Shown here: one piece after another, positions 23,731 to 55,517 of the stretch
Layout: every line of letters starts with the position of its first letter
Position numbering within the stretch: position 1 is the stretch's first letter
Origin: an uncultured bacterium
GTDB taxonomy: Bacteria; Krumholzibacteriota; Krumholzibacteriia; Krumholzibacteriales; Krumholzibacteriaceae
Assembly (NCBI GenBank): GCA_963786935.1
Contig: CAWBAN010000001.1
Location: forward strand, 513,158-577,157
Length of the DNA stretch: 64,000 nt
Direction: 5' to 3'
Position numbers and translations under genes: made by a program
Notes under the pieces: generated by a model
The model's input: the letters and a program-made list of their open reading frames with translations, nothing else
The model's database searches: none
Told to the model about the DNA's origin: nothing

Positions 23731-23747
23731 AACGGAAGGGGGAACGT

Positions 23748-35482: not shown

Positions 35483-36343
35483 TCAATCTCCCCAGATGCG
35501 TCTGAACATGCACCACTGATCGGCGTTGGCTCCGATGAAGCGTTCGACCGCTCCGTACATCCTCGCGAGCGCCTCCCGCTCGGATCCGGCCTCGATCTCC
35601 CCGGCGCTCATGATATGCTCGATGTGCAGCCGGTGCGCCGTGTTTCCCACGCGGCGGCAGTATCCCCCGAGAATGGGCGCTCCCGACGCGCGCGCGAGCC
35701 TCGCGGGGCCGTCGGGCAGGCGGGCGCTCCGGCCGAAGAAGGGCAGGTCGACGCCCCCCGTGTAGATATTGCCGTCGACGAGAAGGATGATGACGCCGTT
35801 CGCGGCGAGCGCCTTGAGCAGCTTCCGGTATGAATCATCCGGGCCGATCACGTCGATGCCGCGCCTTTTCTTCGCTTCCTTGACCGCGCCTGTGAGAAAC
35901 CTGTTCATTTGCACCCCCGCGACCACGTGGAGCCGGTATCCGAGGGCCTGCAGGCAGCGGGCGCCGAGCTCCCAGCTCCCCGTATGCACCGAGACGACGA
36001 TGGCCCCTTTCCCGCCGGCGATCGCCGCATCGAGCGCTGCGCGTCCCTCGAGATCGCACCACCCGAGAATGGTGTCGTCGTCCCAGGCGAGAGAGGCGAA
36101 CATCTCGATGAGGTTCGTTGCATGAAGCCTGAAGACGCCGAAAACCCGCTCGTCCGTCGGCGAAAGCCCCGCAGCCGCCAAGTTCTCCGCGACATTACCC
36201 CGCTTCGAGCGCGAGATCGCGTAATCGAATCCGGCGCAGAGCCCGGCGATGCCGTTCCTCATGGAGGCGGGGACGGCGCTCGCCAGAGATGCAATCAACC
36301 TAAAGGTCAGCTTTCCAATATCTTCCACGATTTTGGCGAGCAT
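35483..36343 (-). CDS. Lysophospholipid/lipid-A-type acyltransferase (HtrB/LpxL/PatA-like, LPLAT superfamily)
   Basis: The HX4D-type region VHTGSWELG and the later DGNIYTGGVDLPFFGRSARLPDGPARLA match the Lip_A_acyltrans pattern. It lies directly upstream of GT4 with a 3-nt gap. Confidence 0.8.
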   Translation of the reverse strand: MLAKIVEDIGKLTFRLIASLASAVPASMRNGIAGLCAGFDYAISRSKRGNVAENLAAAGLSPTDERVFGVFRLHATNLIEMFASLAWDDDTILGWCDLEGRAALDAAIAGGKGAIVVSVHTGSWELGARCLQALGYRLHVVAGVQMNRFLTGAVKEAKKRRGIDVIGPDDSYRKLLKALAANGVIILLVDGNIYTGGVDLPFFGRSARLPDGPARLARASGAPILGGYCRRVGNTAHRLHIEHIMSAGEIEAGSEREALARMYGAVERFIGANADQWCMFRRIWGD

Positions 36344-36417
36344 ACGGTGCGCGAAACAAATCTGTCAAGCTCCATGAATCGGCGGGAACGCTCGTCTCCC
36401 GGCGCCGCCGCGCGCCG

Positions 36418-37401: not shown

Positions 37402-37436
37402 GGGCCCTCTCTCAATACCGGAGAGGGCCTTTTCCA
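37402..37436 (+). terminator. Rho-independent terminator
   Basis: A 9-bp GC-rich stem GGCCCTCTC/GAGAGGGCC with a 9-nt loop is followed by TTTTCC. Confidence 0.6.
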
Positions 37437-37473: not shown

Positions 37474-37499
37474 CCCTATTCTTAATAAGTTAAAAAATG
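37474..37499 (+). promoter_or_regulatory. AT-rich motif CCCTATTCTTAATAAGTTAAAAAATG (copy 2 of the element at 8154)
   Basis: It matches the mraZ-upstream motif closely (CCCTATT..TTAATAAGTTAwAAAwTG). It lies just upstream of the sigma54-like site. Confidence 0.4.
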
Positions 37500-37516
37500 T
37501 AATCGAATGTTGACGG

Positions 37517-37532
37517 TGGCATGGTCCTTGCG
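37517..37532 (+). promoter_or_regulatory. Candidate sigma54 promoter TGGCATGgtccTTGCG
   Basis: It matches TGGCACG-N4-TTGCW at 14 of 16 positions with exact GG/GC spacing. It sits about 155 nt upstream of the mglA-like start. Confidence 0.5.
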
Positions 37533-37688
37533 CTCGTTCCGAAGTGCCGGGGTGGGCGCTTCGCAGCGTCACGGCAGGGTCAGCACCCCCAGATCGAGCA
37601 TCGAGGAATCTGCTCCAGAACACGGCTTCCGTGCGCGCGCATCGGGTGAGCAGCATTCCCACCCCGGCGCAGATTGAAAGGGAGTGAT

Positions 37689-38789
37689 ATGGCAGTCTTC
37701 AATTACGCCGGCGGAGAGATAAACGCGAAGATCGTCTATTACGGCCCCGGTCTCAGCGGCAAGACGACGAATCTCGAATTCATCTATTCGAAGCTTCCCC
37801 GCGAGAACAAGGGCAAAATGGTCTCGATGAAGACGCGGACCGACCGCACCCTCTTCTTCGATTTCCTGCCGATCGATATCGGCGAGATCAACGGGATGAA
37901 GGTGCGCTTCCTTCTGTACACGGTGCCCGGCCAGGTGTATTACAACGCCACGCGCAAGCTCGTGCTCAAGGGAGTGGACGCAGTCGTGTTCGTCGCGGAT
38001 TCGGCCCCCGACCGCATGCAGGAAAACAAGGAAGCCATCCAGAATCTCGAAGACAACCTGAACGATCTCGGCTTGACCCTGAAGACGATTCCGTGGGTGA
38101 TCCAGTACAACAAGCGCGATCTGCCCAACCGGATCGAGCGCGAGATGATGGACCAGGAGCTCAATACCGACGCCGTGCCGAGCTTCGAAGCGGTCGCGAG
38201 CAAGGGGGGCGGCGTGTATGAGACGTTCGCCGGAATCGCGAAGCTCGTTTTCAAGAACATGCAGGAAGAGCTGAAGGATCCCGAGCGGAAGCGCGAGGCG
38301 CGCGAGCCGCGCAGCCGGGAGCGCCTCAACATCGAGGTCGTCGCGAAAGGCTCCGTGAAGACCGAAGCGGCGACGGGCGGGGACGACTACCGGAATTGCG
38401 CGGGGAAGAAGGAAGAGGAACCCGCTTCCGTTTCCGAGTTCGTCGACAGCGTGCTGAAGGACCGCGTCGATCCGCAGAGCATCGATCTCGGCGCGACGCG
38501 TGAGGGATACGAGGAATACGGCCATCTCGTCGATCTGAACGGCGCCGACGCGAAGGAGCCGGGGGCTTCCCCGCAGGCGACGAAGCCGGGGGAGATTCTC
38601 TCCGATTCCGTCGAGAAGCTCAAGGCGAAGGTCGCGCTGCAGGAGGCCGAGGAGCCTCCGAAGACGGAGCCCCGGCCGCGCCTCGACGTGGTCGAGGAGA
38701 AGCTGATCCGGGTTCCCGTGCGTCTCTCGAAAGAGGAGATGGCGAAAGAGATCCGTCTGAACATCATCATCGATATCGCCGTCGATTGA
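37689..38789 (+). CDS. mglA: MglA-family Ras-like GTPase with ~175-aa charged, low-complexity C-terminal extension
   Basis: The G-domain (about aa 1-190) aligns closely with Myxococcus MglA: EINAKIVYYGPGLSGKTTNL (P-loop), TRTDRTLFFDFLP (switch I), LYTVPGQVYY (switch II) and IQYNKRDLP (NKxD). The Glu/Lys/Pro-rich tail (38270..38789) is in the same frame. Confidence 0.85.
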   Translation: MAVFNYAGGEINAKIVYYGPGLSGKTTNLEFIYSKLPRENKGKMVSMKTRTDRTLFFDFLPIDIGEINGMKVRFLLYTVPGQVYYNATRKLVLKGVDAVVFVADSAPDRMQENKEAIQNLEDNLNDLGLTLKTIPWVIQYNKRDLPNRIEREMMDQELNTDAVPSFEAVASKGGGVYETFAGIAKLVFKNMQEELKDPERKREAREPRSRERLNIEVVAKGSVKTEAATGGDDYRNCAGKKEEEPASVSEFVDSVLKDRVDPQSIDLGATREGYEEYGHLVDLNGADAKEPGASPQATKPGEILSDSVEKLKAKVALQEAEEPPKTEPRPRLDVVEEKLIRVPVRLSKEEMAKEIRLNIIIDIAVD

Positions 38790-38899
38790 ACGCGCGAAAA
38801 GACTTGACCCGATACGAGACGGGGTGTGAAAATCGGAACCGGAGCGCTCGACAGGCTCCGGTTTTTCGATTATATTTGCGTTATAGAGGGGGAGCCGCC

Positions 38900-39268
38900 A
38901 TGGCGAAGATATTGATCGTCGACGACGAAGTCAACGTGAGGAAGCTCTACAGCGAAGAGCTTCGGAGCGAAGGGTACCTTACCGTCTCGGCGGCCACCGT
39001 CGCGGAGGCGATCGAGTCGGTGGAGAAGGAGGAGCCTGATCTCGTCATTCTCGATATCAAGCTCGGCGAGGAGAGCGGCATCGACGCCCTCATGAAGATC
39101 GCCAAGCAGCGCAAGCGGCTGCCGGTGATCCTGAACTCCGCGTACTCGGTCTACAAGGACAATTTTCAGACGTGGGCGGCGGACGCGTATATCGTGAAAT
39201 CGGTCGATCTCACGCCGCTGAAGGAAAAGATACGGGATCTTTTGACGACACGGAGGACGCAGGCGTGA
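38900..39268 (+). CDS. Single-domain CheY-like response regulator
   Basis: Receiver pattern: KILIVDDE, phospho-acceptor DLVILDIKL, T/S in LNSAYS and K in YIVKS. It lies inside track ORF 38786..39268. Confidence 0.85.
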   Translation: MAKILIVDDEVNVRKLYSEELRSEGYLTVSAATVAEAIESVEKEEPDLVILDIKLGEESGIDALMKIAKQRKRLPVILNSAYSVYKDNFQTWAADAYIVKSVDLTPLKEKIRDLLTTRRTQA

Positions 39269-39714
39269 TGATGATGATGATGAAAAGAGCGTGCGTTGCA
39301 TCGATGATTATCGCGTTCGCATCGGTCGCGGCGCTCGCGCAGACCGGGAGCGCGCCGACGCGCCAGAGCGTGTTCTCGGATTATCTGAATCCGCAGACGG
39401 GGGCGTCGTTCCTCCGCGTGCCCGGTCTGAGCTTCTCGTCTTCGGCGGGATTCTCGTATTTTTCCGGGGGCGGCGGGGATTCGTTCGGCATGGGCTACTA
39501 CATGGGGCATTTCGGCCTCAAGCTCTCGAGCTCGATCAGCCTCAACTGGGACGTCGGCGTCGGTTCGGTCATGCGAAGCACGAGCGAATACAACCAGCCG
39601 CAGTTCTTCATTCCGAACATGGACCTCACGTACCGGCCGAGCGACAACTTCATGCTACGGATCGAGTATCATCAGAGCCCGTACACCGGCGTCTCCCGGG
39701 CCTTCGGGCGATGA
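39268..39714 (+). CDS. Small secreted Gly/Ser-rich protein (signal peptide), function unknown
   Basis: GTG then (ATG)5 at 39265-39282. The start overlaps the RR stop. A signal peptide is followed by a mature region rich in Gly, Ser, Tyr and Phe. Confidence 0.5.
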   Translation: MMMMMKRACVASMIIAFASVAALAQTGSAPTRQSVFSDYLNPQTGASFLRVPGLSFSSSAGFSYFSGGGGDSFGMGYYMGHFGLKLSSSISLNWDVGVGSVMRSTSEYNQPQFFIPNMDLTYRPSDNFMLRIEYHQSPYTGVSRAFGR

Positions 39715-39818
39715 CGATCGGCGCCCGGCGAGCCACAACATGCTGGGCCGAGAAAATCTTGACATCCAAGATATAGTGCTATAGCCTTGCGGAAAAGCTG
39801 CATCGTTGGGCGTTTCCA

Positions 39819-40988
39819 GTGCGGAGGTTTGCGGTGCTTCGCTGGGATAGACTGATCGATATCGCCCGCGGCGAGGGCGCGGAGGAGAGCAGGGAGATCG
39901 TCCGTCTGACGCGGAAATACGAGGCGGGCGAGGCGCAGCCCGAAGAGATCCTCGAGCTCGCCGGGCATCTGCTCAAGGGCCGGAATCCGAAGAAGGGGGA
40001 AAAGGCGATCATGGAGCTGATCGAGTCCCCCGATCTCGACGAGGCGCTCCTCGAAGAGGCGTGCGAGCTCCTCGAGCAGGTCGGCAGCTACGAGCTCGCG
40101 CTCGGGGGCTACGGCAGGGTGCGCGAGCGCGACCCCGGCAAGGCCCTTCCGCTCTACCGCATGGGGCGGCTCCTCGAGATGCAGGGGAGGCTCGACGAGG
40201 CGATCGCGCTCCACCGGCAGGCGATCGCGGTCGAACGCGACAATCCCGAGTGCTACTACCGCCTCGGCGTCGCGCATACGAAGAATCACCAGTACGAGGA
40301 GGCCGAGGAACAGTACCGCAAGGCGATCGACATCGATCCGACGCATTCGAAGTCGTACACGAACCTCGGCTACATTCTCGATCTCCAGGGCAAGCGCGAG
40401 TCGGCGCTGCTCCAGTTCCGCAAGGCGGTACAGCACAATCCGAAGAACGCGGAGGCGCATTTCAATCTCGGCGCCCTGTACGGCGAGGAGGGTGATCGGG
40501 ACCAAGCGATCAAGGAGTTCCGCATCGGTCTCGAGCTCGACACGGCGAGCATCGAGGGGCATTACAACCTCGGCCTCGCCCTCATGAACGAGGGGCGCCT
40601 CGACGACGCGGAGGAGGAGTTCAAGCGCATTCTCAAGATGGAGCACGACAACGTGAACGCGCTCTTCTACCTCGGATTTCTCTATTACCGGAAAGGCGTG
40701 TACGGGAAGGCGCTCAAGCACCTGCAGCACGCCTCGCGCCTCAATCCGGGGAACTCCACGATCCTCTATTACGTGGGCGAGTGCTTCAACAAGCTCGAGC
40801 AGCCCTCGAAGGCGCTCGAGTACTACAAGAAGGTCACGGAGATCAACCCGACCGATTCGAAGGTCTATTTCAGCCTCGGCGTGATCTACGAGAAGCAGGA
40901 CGACAAGCGGAAGGCCCGTGAATACTACAAGCTCGCCGCCCTCAAGGCGCAGGACGAGGCGCCCGGAGGAACGCGGGTCGTCGAATGA
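39819..40988 (+). CDS. TPR-repeat protein
   Basis: About 8 canonical TPR units (e.g. AEAHFNLGALYGEEGDRDQAIKEFRIGLELD). ATGA overlap with the downstream gene. Confidence 0.75.
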   Translation: MRRFAVLRWDRLIDIARGEGAEESREIVRLTRKYEAGEAQPEEILELAGHLLKGRNPKKGEKAIMELIESPDLDEALLEEACELLEQVGSYELALGGYGRVRERDPGKALPLYRMGRLLEMQGRLDEAIALHRQAIAVERDNPECYYRLGVAHTKNHQYEEAEEQYRKAIDIDPTHSKSYTNLGYILDLQGKRESALLQFRKAVQHNPKNAEAHFNLGALYGEEGDRDQAIKEFRIGLELDTASIEGHYNLGLALMNEGRLDDAEEEFKRILKMEHDNVNALFYLGFLYYRKGVYGKALKHLQHASRLNPGNSTILYYVGECFNKLEQPSKALEYYKKVTEINPTDSKVYFSLGVIYEKQDDKRKAREYYKLAALKAQDEAPGGTRVVE

Positions 40989-42550
40989 AGTCGCTTGCAT
41001 CGATGAAGAGAGCCATTGGCGCGGCGGCCATTCTCGCTGGCGTACATTGCATGGCGCCGGCCGTCCGCGCTGAAACCATTCCTCCCGACAGCTGGGCGTA
41101 CGGGGCGCTGCGGGCCTTCGAGGTGAGCGGGCTCGTGAGACTCGAATCGACGCTCCCGTACACCTATATGCAATGCGAAGCCTATACTCGTGAGATCCTC
41201 GCGAACGTGGATGCGCGCGGCGTTGCGCTCGGTCCGCGGCACGCGTTTCTTCTCGAGCGCCTCGCGAAGCAGTTCGTCGGAATGCGCGATCGTCCCGAGG
41301 ACCGGTGGAGCAAGCCGGTGTACACGGTGCGCGAGGATGAGCGCTTCGCGGCACTCGACGCGAGCGTCGGCGGTTCGGTCGAGAGGAAGCCCGACGGGGA
41401 TTCATGGGAAGCGTTCGGGCTCGCCGTTCCGGGCATCCTCGTGGGATTGGGGCACGGCGTCACGATGGAGACGAGCTACCGGCTCGTGATGGGGCCGGAG
41501 CAGGGAAGCAACGCGCACCTGGAAAAGCCCGACGCGCGGCTGCGGAGCTACCACGGCCTGACGGGGGAGTTCGAGCGGGGGCTCATCGACGCGGGCGGCG
41601 ACTGGTGGCAGGTGCGCGCGGGCAGGGAATACATGCAGTGGGGAAGCGGTCCGCGCGAGGGTCTCACGCTCTCGAGCGCCGGGGGATCGCTCGACCACGT
41701 CGGCGCCCGCTTCACGCTCGGGCGTTTCGCGCTCAGCACGTTCCAGGCGGTTCTCAGCTCCGAGCCGGAGAGACGCTTCGCGGGGCATCGCCTGACCGCC
41801 GCGCTGCCGAACGGTATCGATGTCGGCATCGGGGAGACCGTGGTTTATGCGGGGAATATGGATTGGAAGTATCTGACGCCCCTTGGCTTCTTCTACGCCC
41901 ATCAGTACAACGAAGGAACCAACGCGGATAACATTCTCTGGACGCTCGATTGCAAGGTGCCGCTTCGTCCGGGCCTGCTGCTCTCCGGGGAGTTTCTCAT
42001 CGACGACATTCAGTACGAGCGCGACGAGAATGCCGGTCCGGACCGGCTCGGCCTCACGGTCGCGGCGGAAGCGCTCTTCATGGTGGCGGGGAGGGATCTC
42101 GAGGTCGCCGCCGGATACACCTTCATCGACGCGTACACGTACGGTCATTCGGGGGGATCGCAGTACGTCGCCGGCGACGGCGACACGGAGATGAATCCGC
42201 TCCTCGGCGCTTCGATGGGGCCCGACGCGGACCGGAGCTTCATCACGGGAACGCTCGGTCTGAGCGCGCGGACCGCGTTCACGATCGAGGGGGGCGGCAC
42301 GAGATACGGCGCGTTGAGCACGCTGTTCCACGCGGCGCTGCCCGATTGGGCCCCCGGCATGGACAGCGATCTTCCGTTCCCGAGCCCGCCGGTCCTGTAC
42401 GTGAAGTATCTCCTGGCGAGCCTTCGCTATGATCTGAATCACGGATCGTACGTTTCGGCCGGCGCGTGGATGCGGCAGCTCGATCGGGACGCCGACGATG
42501 TCCACACGAGCGGGAGCTACGGCTGGTTCGAGGTCGTTCTGGATCTCTGA
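40985..42550 (+). CDS. Wzi-family outer-membrane protein (capsule/surface-polysaccharide anchoring lectin-porin)
   Basis: The signal peptide is followed by DSWAYGALRAFEVSGLV...TLPYTYMQCEAYTREIL, which matches the Wzi N-helical motif. The internal YMQWGSGPREGLTLS resembles Wzi QWWGPGYEGSLI. A beta-barrel-like alternation runs to a C-terminal aromatic residue. Confidence 0.65.
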   Translation: MKSLASMKRAIGAAAILAGVHCMAPAVRAETIPPDSWAYGALRAFEVSGLVRLESTLPYTYMQCEAYTREILANVDARGVALGPRHAFLLERLAKQFVGMRDRPEDRWSKPVYTVREDERFAALDASVGGSVERKPDGDSWEAFGLAVPGILVGLGHGVTMETSYRLVMGPEQGSNAHLEKPDARLRSYHGLTGEFERGLIDAGGDWWQVRAGREYMQWGSGPREGLTLSSAGGSLDHVGARFTLGRFALSTFQAVLSSEPERRFAGHRLTAALPNGIDVGIGETVVYAGNMDWKYLTPLGFFYAHQYNEGTNADNILWTLDCKVPLRPGLLLSGEFLIDDIQYERDENAGPDRLGLTVAAEALFMVAGRDLEVAAGYTFIDAYTYGHSGGSQYVAGDGDTEMNPLLGASMGPDADRSFITGTLGLSARTAFTIEGGGTRYGALSTLFHAALPDWAPGMDSDLPFPSPPVLYVKYLLASLRYDLNHGSYVSAGAWMRQLDRDADDVHTSGSYGWFEVVLDL

Positions 42551-43371
42551 TGCGAAAAATCCTGAGCCTCATAATCGTGATGCGTCCGCACAACGTCGCG
42601 GCGGCGCTCCTCTCCGTGGCCGTCGGTTTCGCCATGACCGGCTCGACGCGCTGGCCGTGGCTCGTCTTCGCCGCGGCCGCGTTCGCCACGGCGGCGGGCA
42701 ACACGATCAACGATATCTACGACGTCGATATCGACCGGGTCAACAAGCCGCGGCGGCCCCTCGCCGCGGGGGCGCTGGGCACGACCGCCGCGATCGGGCT
42801 CTACGCCTTCTTCTTCGCCGCGGCGGTGTTTCTCATGCTGTTTCTTCCGGGAGAAGCCGCCGTGTGGATCGGCGTGTGGATCGTGCTGCTCCACATCTAC
42901 AGCTGGCGGCTCAAGCGGATGTACCTCGCGGGGAACGTCCTCGTCTCCGCCGTGGCGGGTTCCGGATTTCTCCTCGGCGCGCACATCGGGGGAAACGTCG
43001 CGGCGGGGGCCGTTCCCGCGGCGTTCACGTTCTTCTTCGTCATGGGGCGCGAGATCGTGAAGGACACGGACGACATCGAGGGAGACCGGATCTGCGGGGC
43101 GAGAACCTTCCCGATCGTTTCGGGGCGCCGCGCGGCGCTCACGACGGCGCTCGCGATCTTTCTCGCGCTGTGCGTCGCGTTTCCGGTGCCGGCCTTCATC
43201 GGGATGTACGGACGAGCCTATGCGCTCATCATGATGCTCAGCGTGGTGCCGATTCTCTTGGTTTCGATAGGGATCATTCTCGGGGGGCGGTCGCTCGGGG
43301 TCGTGAGCACGCTCCTGAAGATCGGGATGTTCTTCGGCTGCATCGCGTTCTATTTCGGGCCGCGGCGATGA
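42550..43371 (+). CDS. UbiA-family polyprenyl transferase (MenA/UbiA/DGGGPS/DPPR-synthase-like)
   Basis: The Asp-rich motifs NDIYDVDIDRVNKPRRPLA and DTDDIEGDRICGARTFP are present across about 8 TM helices. TGATG overlap with the upstream gene. Confidence 0.8.
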   Translation: MRKILSLIIVMRPHNVAAALLSVAVGFAMTGSTRWPWLVFAAAAFATAAGNTINDIYDVDIDRVNKPRRPLAAGALGTTAAIGLYAFFFAAAVFLMLFLPGEAAVWIGVWIVLLHIYSWRLKRMYLAGNVLVSAVAGSGFLLGAHIGGNVAAGAVPAAFTFFFVMGREIVKDTDDIEGDRICGARTFPIVSGRRAALTTALAIFLALCVAFPVPAFIGMYGRAYALIMMLSVVPILLVSIGIILGGRSLGVVSTLLKIGMFFGCIAFYFGPRR

Positions 43372-43399
43372 AGCGGGCCGCGAAGGGAGACGGGCCGTC

Positions 43400-44224
43400 G
43401 TGAGCATGAGTATGTGGATCGTCGTTCTCCTCGCCGTCGTGCAGGGGCTCACCGAGTTTTTCCCGGTGAGCTCCTCGGGGCACCTCGTCATTTTCGAGGC
43501 GCTTCTCGGCACGCGGGCCGGAAACGGCCAGAGCGGGCTCATGTTCGAAATAGCGGTGCACCTCGGGACGCTGGGCGCCGTGATCATATTCTACCGGGCG
43601 AAGGTTCTTCGCCTCTGCCGCGCGCTCTTCGCTCCGATTTTCGGGGGCGGCGGATACGCCGCCTATCGAAACGAGCTGCGCTACATCGGCCTCATCGTCC
43701 TCGGATCGATGCCGGCGGGGCTCGTCGGCGTTCTCTTTCACGAAGACGTGGAGAAGACGTTCGAATCGCCGAGCATCTCGGCGATCCTGCTCGTCGCCAC
43801 GGGAATCTATCTCCTGATGACGAAGCTGCGCGCCGTGCGGGGGAGACTCGGATGGCAGTCGGCCCTCATCATCGGCGTGGCCCAAGCGATCGCGATCCTT
43901 CCGGGCTGTTCCCGGAGCGGCTGGACGATCGCGACGGGATTGCTCATCGGCGTCGGTTTCGCCGAAGCGGCCGAGTTCTCGTTTCTCCTCTCGATCCCCG
44001 CGATCCTCGGGGCGCTCGCGCTGACGCTCGCGAAGGAGCCCGGCGTGCTGAACGCCGGATCGATCGCGCCGCTGGCGATCGGCGCTGCAGCGGCGTTTTT
44101 CGCGGGGCTCATCGCCCTCAAGCTCCTCATCGGGATTCTGACGAGAGGGGGGTTTCACCGGTTCGCCTATTACCTGCTGCCGGTGGGGATCGCGGCGTTC
44201 GTCTATTTCAGGCTTCGGGTTTGA
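43400..44224 (+). CDS. uppP: Undecaprenyl-diphosphatase UppP (BacA)
   Basis: VVLLAVVQGLTEFFPVSSSGHLVI and PGCSRSGWTIATGLLIG are the BacA signatures, across about 8 TM segments. Confidence 0.9.
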   Translation: MSMSMWIVVLLAVVQGLTEFFPVSSSGHLVIFEALLGTRAGNGQSGLMFEIAVHLGTLGAVIIFYRAKVLRLCRALFAPIFGGGGYAAYRNELRYIGLIVLGSMPAGLVGVLFHEDVEKTFESPSISAILLVATGIYLLMTKLRAVRGRLGWQSALIIGVAQAIAILPGCSRSGWTIATGLLIGVGFAEAAEFSFLLSIPAILGALALTLAKEPGVLNAGSIAPLAIGAAAAFFAGLIALKLLIGILTRGGFHRFAYYLLPVGIAAFVYFRLRV

Positions 44225-44289
44225 GCGGGCGGAATCGGCTCGTCCTGCCGCCCTTGACTTCACCCGTGTCCTCACGTAGGCTCTGCGCC

Positions 44290-45075
44290 ATGGGCGCGCG
44301 TGACGACTCCCGCGGTAACTCCCGAAATGACGCCGGCGGCGAAGAAGTGTCGTTCGGCTACCGGCGCGTCAGCGCCGCCGAAAAGAGGCGGCTCGTCGGC
44401 GGACAATTCGATCCGATTGCGCGCAGGTATGACCTCGCCGACGCGATTCTGAGCTTCGGGCTGCATTTCCGCTGGAAGCGATGGGGGATCGAACGGCTTG
44501 CCCTGAAGAAGGGGGAGTACGTACTCGATGTCTGCGGCGGGACCGGCGATTTCGCGCTGCTCGCCGCCCCCCGCGTCGCGCCTCCGGGACACGCGTTCAT
44601 CTACGACTTCAACCGGGCGATGATGCGCGCCGGCCGCGCCACGGTGAAGCGTTCCCGCTTCGCCGGCAGCATTACTTTCGTCGAGGGAGATGCGGAACGT
44701 CTGAGCTTTCCCAACGGCGTTTTCGACGCGGTCACGGTGGGATTCGGCATCCGGAACCTCGTTCATCTCGATCGGGGATTGAGCGAGATGCATCGGGTCC
44801 TCAGGCCGGGGGGACGGCTCATGATTCTCGAATTCTCTCTCCCCGTCCACGGGTGGCTCCGCCGCCTCTACGATGTCTATTCGTTCAAAGTGATGCCTCT
44901 GGGAGCGAAGATCATCTGCGGCACCGCGGAGCCATTCCGGTATCTCGCCGAATCGATCAGGGTCTTCGATCCGCCCGAGCGGGTGATCGAACGGCTGAAG
45001 AACGCCGGATTCACCGATATCCGTTGTCAGCCGCTCACCGGCGGCATCGCGGTCGTGTATCTCGCCCGGAGGTAA
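44290..45075 (+). CDS. ubiE: UbiE/MenG-family C-methyltransferase (demethylmenaquinone/ubiquinone methyltransferase-like)
   Basis: VLDVCGGTGDFALL, FVEGDAERLSFPNGVFDAVTVGFGIRNLVHL and VLRPGGRLMILEFS match UbiE. It lies inside open frame 43414..45075. Confidence 0.8.
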   Translation: MGARDDSRGNSRNDAGGEEVSFGYRRVSAAEKRRLVGGQFDPIARRYDLADAILSFGLHFRWKRWGIERLALKKGEYVLDVCGGTGDFALLAAPRVAPPGHAFIYDFNRAMMRAGRATVKRSRFAGSITFVEGDAERLSFPNGVFDAVTVGFGIRNLVHLDRGLSEMHRVLRPGGRLMILEFSLPVHGWLRRLYDVYSFKVMPLGAKIICGTAEPFRYLAESIRVFDPPERVIERLKNAGFTDIRCQPLTGGIAVVYLARR

Positions 45076-45081
45076 AGCGAT

Positions 45082-46977
45082 ATGAAGAGACCGATGATCT
45101 CGAAAGAGGCCGGACAGATCGCATCTCATTGCCGGCATTATGCGATGTGCAAGATCGATTATCTGGGAACCGGGCTCTGTCCGACCGGTCCCGAGCGGCA
45201 TTTCGTCGCCTACTATCCGCAGGGACGGATGGATATCTGCGACGCTCTGGCCGGCGAGTCGATCCCCGTGACCGAAGGGCTTCTCGATATCGTCGACACC
45301 TGCACGCTCTGCGGAATCTGCGACAGGCAATGCCATTTCTATACCGGCATGAGGCCGATGACCGTGATGCGGGCCCTCAAGGATTACGTGGCGGCCTGGC
45401 GCGCGGAAGGGGGCAGGGGGACGGCGATTCTCGAGGATGAGGTTTTGAAGGAATTGCGGAAGATCGTCGGCCGGGAATGGGCCACGAACGATCCGGCGAT
45501 CCTCGTGACCTATGCGAATGACCCGTTCCCGCTCGCGGGCCCGCGGATGCCCCGCTATGTGGCGCTGCCGGGTTCCCGCGCAGACGTCGAATCGATCGTC
45601 GCGCTGGCGAACGAATGCGGGCTGCCGTTTGCCGTCCGGGGGAACGGCGGGAGCGTCTTCGGCTTCGTCTTCACCGACGGCATCGTCCTCGACATGAACA
45701 GAATGCGGAAGCTCGTGATCGATCCCGACAACTGGAGCGCCGAGGTGGAGCCGGGAGTGACCTCCTTCGATCTGCAGCGGGAAGCGTACCGGCTCGGCCT
45801 CCGGGTGAACGCCGCGGAGCCTGCCGCCACGGTGTGCGGCAATATCGTCTGCACGGGCACATTTTCCACGTGGTCGAACGTCTACGGGACCGCGGCGGAC
45901 AATGTTCTGGACATGGAGTTCGTCGACAGATCGGGCCGGGCCTTTCACCTGAACGACAAGAGCGTCGCGAACCATTTCGCATTCGAGCGAGACGTCCTGC
46001 CGTCTCCCGGAATCTGCACGCGGGGCCTCGTCAAGCTTCATCCCGTGACCGACGACGAGGAAGGGGTTCTCATTCCGTTTGCGGACTTCGACGGGGCCGC
46101 GCAGTTGGCGAGGAACCTGGGGCAGAGGCGGATCGGCCTCGCCGTGGCGGTCCTCGGGGCGCATTACATCGCGAATTTCATGTGTCCGTCGAAGGAGCTC
46201 GCGGCCCGGCTCAAGCGGAGCCTCTCCGAAGTGCTCGGCTGCGAGTACCTGGTCCTCGCCGTGGGCGACCGCGACGCTCGTGACGCGATCCGGCGAATGG
46301 CCGTCGCGGTGATCGATCAGCCCCTTTTCCGGATGCTGATGCTCGGGCTTCCGAGGCTCCTCGATCCGAGATGGGTCGATCTCATCCGCCAGTACGAGGG
46401 AACGATGCGTCCCTACGAGCTCCTCTGCAAACGGGAGATGCGGCCGCTTCTCGATGCGGTGCTCGAACCGTCGGCCGGAACGATCGCGGAGGCGGTGGAC
46501 GAGGACCTGCGGAGCTTCTACGCCGCGCTCTACGAGCGTCCCGAGATGACCGATATGGTTTGGCTCAACATGTTCCGGATCGTCAGCGCGCGCATGTCGA
46601 GGGAGAAGCATATGCTCGCGTTTCTCGTGTACGTTCCGCTCGATCATATCGACGTCATCAAAAGCATCATTGGGGGATTCAGGAGAATCGCCGACGCCGA
46701 GGGCCTCGACAACGACTACGGCTTTCTCACGCCGATGGATTTCGGGAAGCGAGCCATTCTCGAGTACGATTACTACATCGACCAAACCGACCGGGCCGAT
46801 GCGCAACGAATCGCGCGGGTCATGGCGAAGATCGAACCATGGCTGGACGATCTGGCGGCAGGGACCAAAGGCGTCCAGTGGCTGAAATACGTCTTCTCCC
46901 AGGGATGTTCGCGGAAGGAGAATTTTCTCTACGAAACCTTCGGGCCGCCTCTGAACGGGGAGAAGGCGCCGCGATGA
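45082..46977 (+). CDS. Fe-S cluster (CxxCxxCxxxC) plus FAD-binding PCMH-type (FAD_binding_4) oxidoreductase, unusual fusion
   Basis: The N-terminal 90 aa is Cys-rich (CRHYAMC...GLCP...CTLCGICDRQCHF, a ferredoxin-like motif). An FAD-binding domain follows (ADVESIVALANECGLPFAVRGNGGSVFGF). The C-terminal 300 aa are unassigned. Confidence 0.7.
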   Translation: MKRPMISKEAGQIASHCRHYAMCKIDYLGTGLCPTGPERHFVAYYPQGRMDICDALAGESIPVTEGLLDIVDTCTLCGICDRQCHFYTGMRPMTVMRALKDYVAAWRAEGGRGTAILEDEVLKELRKIVGREWATNDPAILVTYANDPFPLAGPRMPRYVALPGSRADVESIVALANECGLPFAVRGNGGSVFGFVFTDGIVLDMNRMRKLVIDPDNWSAEVEPGVTSFDLQREAYRLGLRVNAAEPAATVCGNIVCTGTFSTWSNVYGTAADNVLDMEFVDRSGRAFHLNDKSVANHFAFERDVLPSPGICTRGLVKLHPVTDDEEGVLIPFADFDGAAQLARNLGQRRIGLAVAVLGAHYIANFMCPSKELAARLKRSLSEVLGCEYLVLAVGDRDARDAIRRMAVAVIDQPLFRMLMLGLPRLLDPRWVDLIRQYEGTMRPYELLCKREMRPLLDAVLEPSAGTIAEAVDEDLRSFYAALYERPEMTDMVWLNMFRIVSARMSREKHMLAFLVYVPLDHIDVIKSIIGGFRRIADAEGLDNDYGFLTPMDFGKRAILEYDYYIDQTDRADAQRIARVMAKIEPWLDDLAAGTKGVQWLKYVFSQGCSRKENFLYETFGPPLNGEKAPR

Positions 46978-48212
46978 GAGCCTCCGGCGAGGAGCTGCGG
47001 CGGGCGCGGACGGGGCGGAAGGGGCGGATCCTGCTCACGGGCGGGACCGGCTTTCTCGGAAGCCATTTGGCCGCCGAGCTTCTCAGGTCCGGAAATGAAA
47101 TCTCGTTGCTCGTCCGGCCGCTCAAGCAGCAACGGGCCGGTGAGAGGGTTGCGAGGATTCTCGACTGGTTCGGAATCGGATCCGAGCTCAGGAGAAACCT
47201 CGAGATCCTCGAAGGAACGATCGAAGCACCGGAGTTTGGATTGGCCGGCCGGGTCCTCTGGGATTGCCTCGAGAATACGAGGGAGGTGATCCACTGCGCT
47301 TCCAACACCGGTTTCGCCGAGAGAAAGAGGCCCGAGGTGGAGGCCGCCAATATCGGAGGGCTCCGCAACGTTCTCGATTTCGCTTCGAGGAGCGGGTGCG
47401 TCTTCTTCCATCATATCAGCACGGCCTATGTAGCGGGGAGGCGCGAGGGGCTCTGCCGGGAAGAGCTCACGGATACGGACGACTTCACGAACGTTTATGA
47501 AGAGACCAAGGCCCGCGGCGAACGGCTGGTCGAGGACCGATGCCGCGCCGCCGGCATTCGCCTGAACATCTATCGTCCGTCGATCGTGTACGGCGACTCG
47601 AGGACGGGACGGAGCCTCCTGTTCAACGCCTTGTACTATCCCGTGAAAACGACCGTCTTCCTCAAGGACCTGTATGAGGCCGACATCCTGAGGCGCGGCG
47701 GCCGCAAGGCCGCGATGGTGGGCGTGCGGCGGAACGGCGACGGGAGCATCTATTTGCCCATCCGTCTCGAAGCGGAGGGCGCGGAGGGAATCAACCTCAT
47801 ACCGGTCGATCATTTTGTCGCGGCGTTTACGGCCATCAGAGAAGAAAGCCTGGACGGAGGGATTTTCCATATCGTCAACGCCGGGCAGACGACGATGAAA
47901 GATCTCATCGATTATACTCAAAGGCTTTTCAATATCCGTGGCATCGAGCCTTGCATGCCGGATCATCTCGGATCCGGGCCGAGGAACGCGCTTGAGGTTC
48001 TCTTCGACGGCTACATCGAAGCCTATGGGCCCTACATGCGTGATAAGCGTACGTTTGCCATGGACAATGCGCGAGGCATTCTGGCCGGGAAGGGGATCGC
48101 CTGTCCGGAGTTCGATTTCGAGATCTTCAGCCGGTGCATGAATTACGCCGTTGAGGTGGGCTGGGGCGCCCGGCTGTTCGGGGGGTGCATGAGCGATGCC
48201 GGTAAGCGATGA
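46973..48212 (+). CDS. Thioester-reductase-domain NAD(P)-dependent reductase (fatty acyl-CoA/ACP reductase-like, extended SDR)
   Basis: ILLTGGTGFLGSHLAAELL (Rossmann), ...HCASNTGF...ANIGGLRNVLDFA...HHISTAYVAG and a YEETK catalytic dyad match the TD/NAD_binding_4 family. ATGA overlap with the oxidase gene. Confidence 0.75.
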
Positions 48213-48540
48213 TTATCTCCAATTCGTTCTCGACCAGCTCGCGGGCTTGAACGGGGTGTCCGCTCGGAGGATGTTCGGCGGCGCCGGGCTCTATCGCGAG
48301 GGGATAATGTTCGGTCTCATCGCGGACGACAGGGCGTATCTGCGCGTCGATGATTCGAACCGCGCGTCTTTCGAGGATGCCGGATCCGAACCGTTCCATC
48401 CCTACGGCGCGAAAGCGACGATGCCGTACTACGAAGTTCCCGTCGACGTGCTCGAGGATTCGGGAGATCTCTGCGCATGGGCCCACAAAGCTCTCGCGGC
48501 GGCGGTGCGGGGACATCGGGCTTCACCGCGGCGGAAGTAG
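48196..48540 (+). CDS. TfoX N-terminal-domain-like protein
   Basis: RRMFGGAGLYREGIMFGLIADDRAYLRVDD follows the TfoX_N pattern. The start overlaps the reductase end by 17 nt. Confidence 0.55.
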   Translation: MPVSDDYLQFVLDQLAGLNGVSARRMFGGAGLYREGIMFGLIADDRAYLRVDDSNRASFEDAGSEPFHPYGAKATMPYYEVPVDVLEDSGDLCAWAHKALAAAVRGHRASPRRK

Positions 48541-48570
48541 CCGCGCCGTCGGCCGCGACCGCCGGGATCC

Positions 48571-50454
48571 TCAGGGCGAGCTCTCGAGCCGCTTGAGCAT
48601 TTCGGTGAGCTGCGGCTCTCCCGGGACTTCCACGAGCGCCTTCTTGACCCAGCTGATCGCTTCGTCGCGGTCGCCCTCCGCCATCGCCGCGCGCGCGAGC
48701 AGCCTGCACGCGAGCGCCCGTTCCATCGGCCGGTCGGCCGCGCTCGCCTCGCGGTAGAGCCGCTTCGCCTCCTCGCGGCGTCCGAGGCGGTCGAGCGCCA
48801 TGCCGTACTCCGCGGCGAGGAGCGGGAAGCGCGGGGAGCGCGCGTACGCCCGGGAGAACGCGTCGGCGGCTTCCTGCATCCGTCCCCGCTGCCGGAGGAT
48901 CCGCGCGTAGCTCACGATCGCCTCGACCTTGTCCGGATCGAGCCGGTACGCCTGCTCGAACTCCTCCTGCGCCCGCGCCTCGTCGCCGCGCTCCGCGTAG
49001 TGCTTTCCGAGAAACGAGTGTATCGCGGCGTCGCTCAGCGGCGCGAGCGGCCTGCCCGAGACGAGGAAGAAGAGCGCGACGGCGAGCGCCGCGGCGGCGC
49101 CGAGACGTTTCAGGCGCCTCAGCGAGAGCTCCCGCGCGCTCCAGACGATGAAATAGGCGGCGAGGAGGATGAGGAGCGGCGTCGCCGGGAGCCGGTAGCG
49201 CGCGATGACGAAGAACGCGACGACCGAAACGACCGCGCACGCGAGAAAGAGGGCCGTGGCGCTCCGGTTCCTCCCGCCGCGCATCATGACGATGAATCCG
49301 CATACGGCGAGCGGCGCGATCACCGAGAAGGGCAGGAAGAGAAACCTGAGGACGCCGCAGGTCTTCATGCAGAAGATGACGTTCGGAATGTCGGGGACGT
49401 CGACGTTGAAGTACAGCACCAGTTTCTTCCCGATCAGCGCGAGCCACTTCGCGGGGTGCCGCGCGATATGCTTGATCGTCTCGCGGAAGTAGTACTCGGA
49501 CACCTCCGCCTGCGTCATGGATCTCCCCGTCTCGGCCTCGGCTTTCGTGCGCGAGTCCTCCGCGATCGACGTCATGCCCGTGCGCACGTCGACGGGAGGC
49601 TGGAATGCGCCGCTCGCGCCCGGCCCGTTCCCGATGTAGAAGTTGAATCCTCCGTGGGCGGTCACGGGGACGAAGCGGCCGGTCGCCCTCGCGTTGTAGA
49701 CGATCGGGGGGGCGAGGAACAGCGCGGCGCCGGCGACGAGCGCGCCGGCGGGGAGCAGCCATCGGCGGCCGCTCCGGCGCCTCGCGAAAAGCCATACCGG
49801 AAGTGCGGCGATCAGGAGGAGGAAGAGATTGGGTCTTCCGAGCGCGCCGGTCCCGACGAGGGCGCCGAGAACGAGCCCCGAGACCCCGGGGGGCACCCGG
49901 CGGCTCCCGAGCATCACGGGGCGCTCTCCCCGCAGGTCGCCGTCGAGCGCGAGCGCGAGCGCGAACGAGGCCGTGAACAGGAATATCTCGAGCGTCGAAG
50001 CGAGCAGCATGCCCTCGTACAGGACGAACGGCATGTAGAGGACGGCGAGCGCCGCGGCAACGAGCCCCACGGCCTCTCCGTGCCGTTTCCCCTTCCACGC
50101 GCCGGGGGCGAACCGGCGCCCGAGGAGATAGACGAGCGCGACGGTGAAGAGCCCGATCGCGGCCTGAACGAGACGCGCGGGGAGAAGCCCTGCGCCGAAG
50201 AGCTTGAAGAGCACGACGAGAAACGCCGGGTAGAGCGGATTGAAGGTCAAGGCGCCCGCCGGCGGCGCGCCCCCGCCCGCGATGTCGCGGGCAACGTCGA
50301 AATAGAGCTGCGAATCGAGCGAGAGGGAGCCGCCGAGCTCGTTCCGCCCGAGCTGCACGAGGAAGATCGCCCGCGTGACGGCCGCCACGACAAGAATCGC
50401 GGCGAGAATCGCCGCCGCCGGGACCGCCCCTTTCCGCTGATTCTTTCTGTTCAT
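48571..50454 (-). CDS. GT-C membrane glycosyltransferase (ArnT/PMT-like, GT39/83) with C-terminal TPR repeats
   Basis: An N-terminal region of about 11 TM segments has an ArnT-like loop. The C-terminal 170 aa are TPR units (AERGDEARAQEEFEQAYRLDP...). GGAGG RBS. Confidence 0.7.
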   Translation of the reverse strand: MNRKNQRKGAVPAAAILAAILVVAAVTRAIFLVQLGRNELGGSLSLDSQLYFDVARDIAGGGAPPAGALTFNPLYPAFLVVLFKLFGAGLLPARLVQAAIGLFTVALVYLLGRRFAPGAWKGKRHGEAVGLVAAALAVLYMPFVLYEGMLLASTLEIFLFTASFALALALDGDLRGERPVMLGSRRVPPGVSGLVLGALVGTGALGRPNLFLLLIAALPVWLFARRRSGRRWLLPAGALVAGAALFLAPPIVYNARATGRFVPVTAHGGFNFYIGNGPGASGAFQPPVDVRTGMTSIAEDSRTKAEAETGRSMTQAEVSEYYFRETIKHIARHPAKWLALIGKKLVLYFNVDVPDIPNVIFCMKTCGVLRFLFLPFSVIAPLAVCGFIVMMRGGRNRSATALFLACAVVSVVAFFVIARYRLPATPLLILLAAYFIVWSARELSLRRLKRLGAAAALAVALFFLVSGRPLAPLSDAAIHSFLGKHYAERGDEARAQEEFEQAYRLDPDKVEAIVSYARILRQRGRMQEAADAFSRAYARSPRFPLLAAEYGMALDRLGRREEAKRLYREASAADRPMERALACRLLARAAMAEGDRDEAISWVKKALVEVPGEPQLTEMLKRLESSP

Positions 50455-50468
50455 ACGCCTCCGGCGAC

Positions 50469-50476
50469 ATTATAAT
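50469..50476. promoter_or_regulatory. Palindromic ATTATAAT -10-like element in divergent intergenic region
   Basis: A perfect TATAAT reads on both strands, which is rare in this GC-rich sequence. It lies between divergent genes at 50454 (-) and 50555 (+). Confidence 0.3.
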
Positions 50477-50554
50477 GCAGGGAGGGTTCCGTACCGCAAG
50501 CATTACTCGATTCCGGCCGTCGCCTTCCGCGCCGGCCGCGCGATTCGGGGGGGC

Positions 50555-51952
50555 ATGGTCGCCACATCGGGCCCGATCGATTCGTTCGCCTCGCGGCTGC
50601 GCTACCGCGCCGGCTACGAGGAGCGGTGCGTCCGCACGCTCGAGACGGCGATCGGCTCGACGCGGGCGTACGGGGCGTGGCGCGCGCTCGATCCGGGGCC
50701 GCCGGCCGGGGTTTTCGCGCGCCTCGCCGCGCTCCCCGCGCTGACGAAGGAGGATCTTCGCGCCCACGGCCCCGCGGGATTCGTCCCCGGCGGCCGCGAT
50801 CTCGAGGCGGCGCTCGCCGCCGGCGAGGTCGAGCTCGTCAAAACGAGCGGCTCGACGGGGGATCGGGTCGTCAACGCGTGGCATCAGCCGTGGTGGGACG
50901 CCTCGGAAGCCGCCTCGTGGCGTCTCAACGCCCGCGTGCGCGACGCGGCCGTCGGGGAGCATCCCGAGGCGATCCTCACGAGCCCCTGGTGCACCGGCGT
51001 CCCCTGCGAGGACGAGTACCTCGCGATGCACCAGCGCACGCTCGGGAGGTTCCTCTACCTCAGCGAGCGCTCCGATCCGAGCGCGTGGGACGAGTCGCTC
51101 ATGGATCGCATGATCGTCGAGCTCAACGAGTTCAAGCCGGTCGTCATCGAGGCAAATCCGTCCTTCCTCGCGCGGCTCTCGCGCCATATCGTGAAGCGGG
51201 GGCTCCGCGCGCACGCCCCGGCGACCATCATCCTCACCTACGAGAATCCGTCGATCCTCCATCATCGCCAGATCCGCGCGGCGTTCGACGCGCCGGTCGC
51301 CAGCTCGTACGGATCGACCGAGACCGCGTACGTGTTCATGGAATGCGAAGCGGGCCGCATGCATCAGGTCGCGGAGAGCTGCCATGTCGATTTCCTGCCG
51401 TTCGCGCCGGAGCACGGCGGACCGGACATCGGACGCATCCTCGTCACGACCTTCGAGAATCCCTGGCGCGCGCTCCTCCGCTTCGACGTCGGCGACGTCG
51501 TCCGGCTCGACGGACGCGGGCCGTGCCCGTGCGGCCGCGACGAGGGGCTCACCCTCGCCTCGATCGAGGGGCGCACGATCGGCATCACGCTGACGCCGGA
51601 AGGGGGAGCGGTGACGCAGGGCGCCGTCGACCGGACCCTCGGCGCCGTGGAGGGGCTCGTCGAGTACCAGCTCGCGCAGACCGGGCCCGAGGCGTTTCTC
51701 CTGCGTTTCGTGAGCGATGAAGCGGCGCCGGCCGGCGTCGGACGCGCGGCCCGGGAAGCGCTCGCCGCGCTGTACGGCGGCCGCGCGGTCATCACGCCGG
51801 AGCGGGTCGACGCGATTCGGCCCGATCCGCCGGGAAAATACAAGCTCGCCAAACGGCACGAGCCGCTCGACCACGACGCGCTGCTCGACGAACGGTTCGC
51901 CCCGCGGCGCGTCGGGGGAACGTCCGGATCCAGCGAGGAGGCACGCTCATGA
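50555..51952 (+). CDS. Adenylate-forming enzyme of the phenylacetate-CoA ligase / CapK / coenzyme-F390-synthetase family
   Basis: The AMP-binding core is VKTSGSTGDRVVNAW and the later SSYGSTETAYVFMECEAGRMH. The size and layout match PaaK-like ligases found in capsule loci. Confidence 0.75.
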   Translation: MVATSGPIDSFASRLRYRAGYEERCVRTLETAIGSTRAYGAWRALDPGPPAGVFARLAALPALTKEDLRAHGPAGFVPGGRDLEAALAAGEVELVKTSGSTGDRVVNAWHQPWWDASEAASWRLNARVRDAAVGEHPEAILTSPWCTGVPCEDEYLAMHQRTLGRFLYLSERSDPSAWDESLMDRMIVELNEFKPVVIEANPSFLARLSRHIVKRGLRAHAPATIILTYENPSILHHRQIRAAFDAPVASSYGSTETAYVFMECEAGRMHQVAESCHVDFLPFAPEHGGPDIGRILVTTFENPWRALLRFDVGDVVRLDGRGPCPCGRDEGLTLASIEGRTIGITLTPEGGAVTQGAVDRTLGAVEGLVEYQLAQTGPEAFLLRFVSDEAAPAGVGRAAREALAALYGGRAVITPERVDAIRPDPPGKYKLAKRHEPLDHDALLDERFAPRRVGGTSGSSEEARS

Positions 51953-52665: not shown

Positions 52666-52747
52666 ATTTCGCGAATCGCCCGCAAAACTCTTTCCGGGGC
52701 GCATTCCGCCGGGGTATAATCCGGCGGGCGTCTTCAGGGGAGGTCTC

Positions 52748-54106: not shown

Positions 54107-54119
54107 GGAGGCCTCGTTC

Positions 54120-55082: not shown

Positions 55083-55116
55083 TCGCGCGGCGGTTCGACG
55101 AGAGGAGGCGGTGCCG

Positions 55117-55440: not shown

Positions 55441-55517
55441 TTGCGGATTGACCGTTTCTTTTCAATGTGTTAGCTTGTTGTGTCTTTTTTGCGGCATTCT
55501 GCTGAAAAGGAGCGGTC

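Follow-up and report, generated by a model that had tools for sequence, protein, structure and literature searches.

An mglA gene, a Wzi-fold/DGGGPS-like/UppP gene set and a methyltransferase-flavoprotein-reductase module in a Krumholzibacteriota genome: a probable chain of separate units

The GTPase MglA acts via TPR effectors, namely SgmX in Myxococcus xanthus and Bd2492 in Bdellovibrio, and Wzi is typical of group 1 capsule loci containing wza-wzb-wzc. As a rule, group 1 mglA genes go together with mglB, a coupling recorded for 390 of the 449 members of the MglA family (Wuichet and Sogaard-Andersen 2014, PMC4316618). Orthologues of the archaeal prenyltransferase DGGGPS occur in all 12 surveyed phyla of the FCB superphylum, and their function is unexplained where G1PDH is absent (PMC6431249). 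The DGGGPS enzymes of Cloacimonetes, which are encoded together with GGGPS, show activity in E. coli (PMC7852524). Homologues of MglA, Wzi and DGGGPS are encoded close together on a stretch of 64,000 nucleotides (nt) from an uncultured member of the Krumholzibacteriaceae (assembly GCA_963786935.1, contig CAWBAN010000001.1, positions 513,158 to 577,157), called the window in the following, whose phylum has been placed in the FCB superphylum (PMC10936416). They belong to a string of eleven genes (g1 to g11, Table 1), which a sequence-only reading had taken for a single, largely translationally coupled gene string encoding one GTPase-regulated system for building or anchoring a polyprenyl-linked surface polymer or lipid.

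Our analysis favours a different arrangement, to which we assign a probability of about 65%. Judged from sequence comparison, g1 to g11 would fall into about four consecutive units with promoters of their own, namely g1 alone, g2 and g3, g4 to g7, and g8 to g11, whose adjacency would reflect genome compaction and phylum-wide collinearity rather than control of a polymer machine by the GTPase. The string would be part of a compact, strongly strand-biased core region between the dcw cluster with RecG and the genes for ValRS, RodZ and UvrB. Its description in the sequence-only reading held up well: after remaking the gene calls from codon-position G+C and a codon-usage score, we recovered all eleven head-to-tail open reading frames (ORFs) on the plus strand and reproduced every quoted junction, that is, GTGATG between g2 and g3 (overlap of 1 nt; GTGATGATG), ATGA between g4 and g5 as well as between g9 and g10 (4 nt each), TGATG between g5 and g6 (1 nt) and the 17-nt overlap of g10 and g11. 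The other spacers measure 110 nt (g1 to g2), 104 nt (g3 to g4), 28 nt (g6 to g7), 65 nt (g7 to g8) and 6 nt (g8 to g9), and the proposed start of the string at 37474 lies outside any gene in the AT-rich promoter region 5' of g1. The domain calls were essentially right as well, with nearly all of them reproduced by Pfam, NCBIfam, PDB and fold searches and the UbiA protein refined to a DGGGPS-like enzyme. The same-strand, overlap-rich pattern of the string is not above the local background, as 51 of the 57 predicted genes of the window are on the plus strand, the coding density is 93.5% (G+C content about 67%), and overlapping junctions amount to 4 of 10 in the g1-g11 region versus 15 of 40 elsewhere in the window.

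Table 1. Genes of the string and promoter- or terminator-like elements around them (positions in the window)
Feature	Position	Strand	Remarks
Terminator-like hairpin with U-run, ending the u2-u1 unit	37402-37432	+	dG -20.7 kcal/mol, z -4.3
Sigma54-type -24/-12 element TGGCATGGTCCTTGC, 5' of mglA	37517-37531	+	pattern TGGCAY-N4-YTTGC
g1, MglA-family GTPase	37689-38789	+	366 amino acids
Promoter-like CTTGACC-N17-TGnGAAAAT, 5' of g2	38803-38833	+	from promoter scan and locus comparison
Hairpin with U-run between g1 and g2, likely mglA terminator	38835-38871	+	dG -18, z -3.7
g2, single-domain CheY-like response regulator	38900-39268	+	
g3, small secreted Gly/Ser/aromatic-rich protein	39268-39714	+	
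Promoter-like CTTGAC-N18-TAGCCT, 5' of g4	39758-39787	+	invariant in 13/13 loci
g4, TPR protein	39819-40988	+	
g5, Wzi-family outer-membrane beta-barrel	40985-42550	+	
g6, DGGGPS-like UbiA prenyltransferase	42550-43371	+	
g7, undecaprenyl-diphosphatase UppP/BacA	43400-44224	+	start at 43400 (GTG) or 43412 (ATG)
Promoter-like CTTGAC-N18-TAGGCT, 5' of g8	44253-44282	+	pre-g4 motif with one mismatch
g8, UbiE/MenG-family methyltransferase	44290-45075	+	
g9, VAO/PCMH-type flavoprotein with Cys-rich (Fe-S-like) N-terminal domain	45082-46977	+	
g10, stand-alone thioester-reductase/FAR-type extended SDR	46974-48212	+	
g11, TfoX_N-domain protein	48196-48540	+	

To compare the junctions, distances were compiled over 23 loci; named homologues and 20 genome loci are from Candidatus Krumholzibacteriota. 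Loose junctions were found between the upstream gene u1 and g1 (271-359 nt in 13/13 loci), between g1 and g2 (97-218 nt, 14/14) and between g3 and g4 (78-161 nt, 12/12). The tight ones are g2 to g3 (overlap or at most 19 nt, 15/15), g4 to g5 (overlap in 8 of 9), g5 to g6 (1-nt overlap in 15 of 18) and g6 to g7 (at most 28 nt), and the stop/start overlaps within g4 to g7 persist down to 40% identity. The promoter-like motifs and terminator hairpins fall in those spacers which are never tight across the loci. A pattern of the form CTTGAC-N16-19-TANNNT matches only three times in the 64 kb (0.22 expected), each time directly 5' of a gene, and the third match besides those before g4 and g8 (CTTGAC-N19-TATGCT, 36339-36369, minus strand) directly precedes the divergent gene of an LpxL-like acyltransferase, suggesting that CTTGAC...TAnnnT is a housekeeping promoter form in this genome. 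The CTTGACC before g2 is invariant in 15/15 loci, and the motif before g8 is kept in loci L007 and L031 and missing in L009 and L027, where g8 abuts g7. A generic scan for sigma70 promoters and terminators yielded counts not above those of shuffled sequences. The sites are credible only through their conservation across loci. The promoter-like motifs before g2, g4 and g8 and the hairpins around g1 speak against reading g1 to g11 as one coupled gene string.

The sequence-only reading had proposed gene-neighbourhood conservation as a check, and the outcome was divided: g1 to g7 are syntenic in all relatives examined, whereas g8 to g11 are patchy. The genes g1 to g7 are adjacent in all of the about 25 related loci, down to a g5 identity of 40%, and the conserved order also includes u2 (coding for a zinc-ribbon protein), u1 (a lipoprotein), the divergent LpxL-like acyltransferase gene and a gene for a family 4 glycosyltransferase (GT4). 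However, the collinearity of the relatives extends over genes of both strands that are functionally unrelated, from RecG (at 28.7 kb) to UppP and from ValRS to CoaX, so that the conserved order lends no specific support to an operon and tells little about a common function. Synteny was therefore rejected as operon evidence, as the collinearity spans unrelated housekeeping genes. The remainder of the window is core housekeeping. On one side of the string lie polysaccharide genes, then the dcw cluster (8329-24941, from mraZ to ftsZ) and RecG, and on the other ValRS (gene at 55518), RodZ, UvrB, NadC, BirA and CoaX.

In four distant relatives (L018, L020, L107 and L108), the UppP gene is directly followed by the ValRS-RodZ-UvrB-NadC-BirA-CoaX genes, which identifies the segment from 44.2 to 55.5 kb of the window (44225-55500) as a variable island. 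Apart from g8 to g11, this island contains a GT-C-like/TPR gene (d1), genes for an adenylate-forming-enzyme-like protein (50555-51952), an S51 peptidase, a 483-amino-acid protein and a PP-loop/GMP-synthase-like protein. The d1 gene (48571-50454, minus strand) codes for a polytopic membrane and TPR protein with a sub-threshold PMT_2 match (E value 1e-3) and is tandemly duplicated in L006, L007, L009 and L027. All four genes g8 to g11 are absent from L003, the closest genome locus (g5 85% identical), and from the distant loci; L007 contains g8 alone, and L009 contains g8 with g11 directly 3' of it and neither g9 nor g10. The complete set is present in the metagenome loci L027 and L030, and L028 and L029 are consistent with it up to their contig ends (g9 86-88% identical). 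A further break was found in L107 and L109 (MglA 50-52% identical), which carry three genes between g3 and the TPR gene (11096-14126 in L107, 11111-13170 in L109), coding for a Lactamase_B protein (minus strand), a DUF3943 protein (minus strand) and an OMP_b-brl-like protein of 207 amino acids (plus strand). Because of the minus-strand genes, the MglA-receiver-g3 and TPR-Wzi-UbiA-UppP genes are not on one transcript in these genomes. The contexts retrieved for extended MglA homologues (50-61% identity) in search of an outgroup were all from the same lineage and showed the same arrangement.

The first of the proposed units would be a monocistronic mglA gene with a sigma54-type promoter and intrinsic terminators on both sides. 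The sigma54-type element is the sole match to its pattern in the 64 kb, with a chance expectation of 0.02, and the motif was found 5' of the mglA start codon in 16/16 loci, at a distance of 152-169 nt or, in two loci, of 82 nt. The hairpin ending the u2-u1 unit is kept in 13 related loci, and the terminator scan picked the same site. Counterparts of the hairpin between g1 and g2, which overlaps the 3' end of the CTTGACC motif before g2, are present in L011 and L020 with sequences differing by locus (z about -3.7 to -4.1). The mglA leader (37539-37688, about 160 nt) contains a conserved closing stem (GCCGGGGTGG/CCACCCCGGC). A structured leader was considered, but the fold is no more stable than those of shuffled sequences (z only -1.06) and shows almost no covariation, and an Rfam scan of the whole window, including the leader, gave no match.

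Residues 1-191 of g1 match the MglA structures 6hjh, 5ymx and 3t12 in phmmer searches against the PDB (E values of 1e-69 to 2e-71, with 2e-71 for 6hjh). The alignment with 6hjh shows that the P-loop GPGLSGKT, the TVPGQ motif with Thr for Asp in switch II and the arginine-finger region TDRTLFFD are retained, features which g1 shares with the MglA proteins of M. xanthus and Thermus thermophilus. Unlike the single-domain group 1 MglA proteins of about 195 amino acids, g1 carries a conserved C-terminal extension of 175 residues (192-366; 38262-38786 in the window) and is preceded by a sigma54-type promoter element. No family match was obtained for residues 192-366, even at permissive thresholds. 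The extension recurs in over 120 clusters of homologues with 360-450 amino acids, which cover g1 over its full length, and consists of conserved islands that alternate with variable acidic linkers (EVVAKG, SVSEFVDxVL, DLGATREGYEEYGHxVxL, DPLEKL and a C-terminal KxxRVPVxLSxEE...ILDIxV). Because no MglB/Roadblock match was found within four genes of g1 or among the other scanned proteins of the 64-kb window, g1 belongs to what Wuichet and Sogaard-Andersen (PMC4316618) call orphans. Its neighbours, u2 and u1 on one side and the response regulator and g3 on the other, are constant in all related loci. No family could be assigned to u1 or u2, even at permissive thresholds. The CheY-like protein encoded next to g1 does not contain a RomR-type C-terminal region. 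The protein appears to be an intact group 1-type MglA switch with a lineage-specific extension, which probably acts in polarity or localisation with partners encoded elsewhere. Its GTPase-activating protein, guanine-nucleotide exchange factor and effectors would likewise be encoded at other sites, unless its own extension possibly takes over such a role.

The second unit would consist of the CheY-like receiver and the translationally coupled small secreted protein g3. The receiver match of g2 (PF00072, E value 3e-21) covers a complete single domain, and direct reading of the sequence shows the DD pair, the acceptor Asp in LVILD and the conserved Lys. A signal peptide is evident from the sequence of g3, for which profile searches returned no family match, permissive thresholds included.

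The third unit, g4 to g7, would be an envelope operon for a TPR protein, a Wzi-fold barrel, a DGGGPS-like prenyltransferase and UppP. The g4 protein matches TPR_1 with an E value of 1.5e-54 and has no signal peptide. For g5 itself no Pfam match was obtained even at E values of up to 1, but PF14052 (Caps_assemb_Wzi) was detected in 19 of 20 aligned homologues (best E value 6e-12). The AlphaFold2 model of g5 (pTM 0.79) shows a beta-barrel of the 18-strand class with an N-terminal helical domain, and its best fold match in the PDB by Foldseek is E. coli Wzi (2ynk; E value 1.4e-12, TM 0.68, about 12% identity). The protein shares barrel class and N-terminal helical domain with the Wzi proteins of the group 1 capsule loci of E. 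coli K30 and Klebsiella, and the PF14052 match is shared by its homologues, but its gene has no adjacent wza-wzb-wzc and is instead translationally coupled to the TPR gene and the DGGGPS-like gene; none of the scanned proteins of the window gave a match to a Wza, Wzb or Wzc domain. Residues 13-100 of g5 (40985-41290) show a weak SLH-like similarity to the Veillonella OmpM1 tether (8bys, profile E value 0.007), which hints at a cell-wall-binding periplasmic domain in the N-terminal helical region. The only Wzi-like relatives found outside the Krumholzibacteriota (26-30% identity; L022 and L110 to L112) have unrelated neighbours (HIT/imidazolonepropionase, GHMP kinase/SpoVG and trehalose phosphatase genes) and are too distant to decide on a linkage of Wzi and UbiA. 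In L110, an unrelated metagenome contig, the distant Wzi-like gene (28% identity) overlaps a gene for a GHMP kinase of the IspE/mevalonate-kinase-like type, followed by spoVG (5805-8627). This second case of a Wzi-like gene beside an isoprenoid-pathway gene may be a coincidence.

The prenyltransferase g6 (PF01040, E value 2e-36) has its best NCBIfam matches by a wide margin with DGGGPS models, at scores below the equivalog cut-offs (NF009521, 177.5 bits vs. 296; NF009523, 171 vs. 269). It aligns end to end (residues 3-270) with the DGGGPS of Methanocaldococcus jannaschii (6m31, E value 9e-29) and carries both Asp-rich motifs, NDIYDVDID and KDTDDIEGD. The full-length alignment, the motifs and the best-model family are thus shared with the archaeal and FCB enzymes, in agreement with an FCB host, but g6 stays below the equivalog cut-offs, is located between a Wzi-like gene and uppP and, unlike the Cloacimonetes genes, has no neighbouring GGGPS gene. 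Neither GGGPS/PcrB nor G1PDH was found among the scanned proteins of the 64-kb window. UppP was clearly recognised in g7 by PF02673 (232.6 bits vs. a cut-off of 33.4), with a score slightly under the cut-off for TIGR00753 (193.5 vs. 217.5). Based on the functions of these families, the unit probably links the recycling of a polyprenyl-phosphate carrier and the synthesis of a prenylated membrane lipid to an outer-membrane glycan-binding or porin protein.

The fourth unit would comprise a C-methyltransferase (g8), a VAO-type dehydrogenase fused to an Fe-S domain (g9) and a thioester reductase (g10), with the TfoX gene (g11) behind. The methyltransferase matches PF01209 (197 bits) and exceeds the cut-off of TIGR01934 (213.7 vs. 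158.35), and its scores with the MpqE and UbiE equivalogs are below their cut-offs. The g9 protein consists of an N-terminal domain in which seven Cys are invariant and which matches Fer4_8 below threshold, a FAD_binding_4 core (PF01565, E value 4e-27) and a cap domain without Pfam match, and its AlphaFold2 model shows the VAO/PCMH fold without affiliation to a specific subfamily. It shares the core and a Cys-rich ferredoxin-like domain with Fe-S-linked dehydrogenases of the VAO family such as GlcD/GlcF, YdiJ and LctD, but differs from them in that this domain is N-terminal and fused. The reductase g10 belongs to NAD_binding_4 (PF07993, E value 2e-41), is FAR-like and matches MxaA and reductase (R) domains of polyketide synthases in the PDB (E value 2e-17), in line with stand-alone thioester reductases and FAR. 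The TfoX_N match of g11 (PF04993) has an E value of 2e-29.

Homologues of g9 form more than 1000 clusters, and the best 120 listed share at least 67% identity and measure about 617 amino acids in length. The order of a UbiE-type methyltransferase, a g9 homologue and a NAD_binding_4 SDR recurs in three unrelated contigs, with identities of 55-61% for g8, 67-69% for g9 and 54-56% for g10. We counted the g9 neighbourhoods in 80 metagenome loci, using those with sufficient room on the contig as denominators. In 67 of 68 loci, an SDR gene directly follows the g9 homologue. A methyltransferase gene directly precedes the homologue in 42 of 66 loci and is close by in seven more (just 3' of the SDR gene or a few hundred nt 5'). 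Neighbouring UbiA and UppP genes were found only in Krumholzibacteriota-like loci with at least 86% g9 identity, TfoX genes only in such loci with at least 82%, and no other gene recurs beside g9-g10 in the 80 loci, whose G+C contents range from 46 to 69%. By their distribution, g8 to g10 appear as an autonomous three-enzyme module which is merely placed behind uppP here. The enzymes would probably methylate, oxidise and reduce a quinone-like, phenolic or acyl-thioester substrate, and a literature search for the methyltransferase/flavoprotein/reductase trio found no description of it.

In the model put forward by the sequence-only reading, MglA, the receiver and the TPR protein would spatially regulate a polymer machine of the Wzi, UbiA, UppP, methyltransferase, oxidase and reductase proteins, all encoded in one eleven-gene operon. 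The constant adjacency of g1 to g7, the envelope-related surroundings (LpxL-like acyltransferase, GT4 and the GT-C-like d1) and the MglA-TPR effector pairs of other bacteria agree with it. Nevertheless, we consider it unlikely, because g8 to g10 apparently form an autonomous module missing from most relatives, minus-strand genes part g3 from g4 in L107 and L109, the conserved promoter- and terminator-like sites partition the string, and collinearity runs over unrelated genes anyway. Several observations also weigh against our division into about four units. The location of mglA close to the gene of a cytoplasmic TPR protein is suggestive in view of the TPR effectors of MglA in M. xanthus and Bdellovibrio, and hints, with a small probability, at a regulatory link; likewise, the adjacency of g1 to g7 in about 25 loci is compatible with a functional link. 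All comparisons of g1 to g7 were made within one phylum, and no informative outgroup was found. The promoters and terminators were deduced from consensus and conservation only and may allow read-through across the units, and because g8 abuts g7 without the promoter motif in L009 and L027, some genomes may transcribe units 3 and 4 together. Quite unlikely in our view is a scheme in which the FCB-type DGGGPS makes a prenyl-ether anchor or carrier for a Wzi-held surface polymer instead of archaeal-type lipids, with MglA and the receiver steering this process via the TPR protein.

The mycobacterial decaprenyl-phosphoarabinose pathway uses a UbiA protein (Rv3806c), a phosphatase, the flavoprotein DprE1 and the SDR DprE2, and the same four enzyme classes are encoded on one strand here. 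By the same logic, g6 would transfer phosphoribosyl to polyprenyl phosphate, g7 would dephosphorylate the product and g9 with g10 would epimerise the lipid-linked sugar through oxidation and reduction, feeding a GT-C enzyme such as d1 with its sub-threshold PMT_2 match (a second PMT_2 protein is encoded at 5705-7225). Despite this formal fit, none of the four proteins shows a match at the subfamily level: g6 scores 177 bits with DGGGPS versus 32-37 with DPPR-synthase models, DprE1 is absent from the best 60 sequence matches and the best 50 fold matches of g9, and g10 is a thioester-reductase-type and not a classical SDR. Moreover, the flavoprotein and the SDR are inherited independently of UbiA and UppP, since g9-g10 occur without a UbiA/UppP match in more than 60 loci and most genomes retaining g6-g7 lack them, which makes this pathway very improbable. 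The same lack of co-inheritance opposes an ether-lipid locus, in which g6 would be a true DGGGPS producing archaeal-type diethers and g9 and g10 would be AGPS- and FAR-like enzymes for bacterial alkyl ether lipids, all serving membrane remodelling and not surface polymers. This idea draws on the end-to-end alignment of g6 with the M. jannaschii enzyme, the DGGGPS/GGGPS orthologues in all 12 surveyed FCB phyla (PMC6431249) and the Cloacimonetes enzymes active in E. coli (PMC7852524), and further on the FAR-like character of g10 and on AGPS itself, which both the sequence and the fold search with g9 retrieved. However, AGPS appears only from rank 44 onwards in the former and near rank 43 in the latter, and it is no nearer to g9 than vanillyl-alcohol oxidases or D-lactate dehydrogenases are. 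An Fe-S domain and a UbiE-type methyltransferase would be unexpected for AGPS chemistry, g6 is below the equivalog cut-off, and the scanned proteins of the window include neither GGGPS/PcrB nor G1PDH. We therefore regard the ether-lipid locus as rather improbable, and both the DprE1/DprE2-like and the AGPS/FAR-like readings of g9-g10 were rejected for want of a subfamily signal. What had been proposed as an eleven-gene system breaks up into ordinary envelope and housekeeping units, which are made of known families with a few twists specific to the lineage, and none of the differences from described systems is categorically new.

Elsewhere in the window, the dcw cluster contains one ORF of 947 amino acids (16335-19178, plus strand) with MurD (MurD_N, Mur_ligase_M) and FtsW/RodA domains, an apparent MurD-FtsW fusion. 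A protein with a C-terminal sorting domain of the type IX secretion system (Por_Secre_tail) is encoded at 92-466, followed by a polysaccharide-biosynthesis block (1103-8070) with genes for CapD-like, FemAB-like acetyltransferase, Wzx-like flippase, GT4, PMT_2 and methyltransferase proteins.

A GTPase-steered polyprenyl-polymer machine would, if true, represent a new kind of envelope system, but the evidence falls short of it. The single units offer three lesser leads that can be tested. The extended MglA, which is found phylum-wide with a sigma54-type promoter and no adjacent MglB, offers a natural case for MglA switching without the canonical GAP. The translationally coupled genes for a Wzi-fold barrel and a DGGGPS-like prenyltransferase together with UppP give the DGGGPS orthologues of the FCB group, so far unexplained, a concrete genomic setting. 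Finally, the trio of UbiE-type methyltransferase, Fe-S flavoprotein and thioester reductase represents a widespread and highly conserved module.

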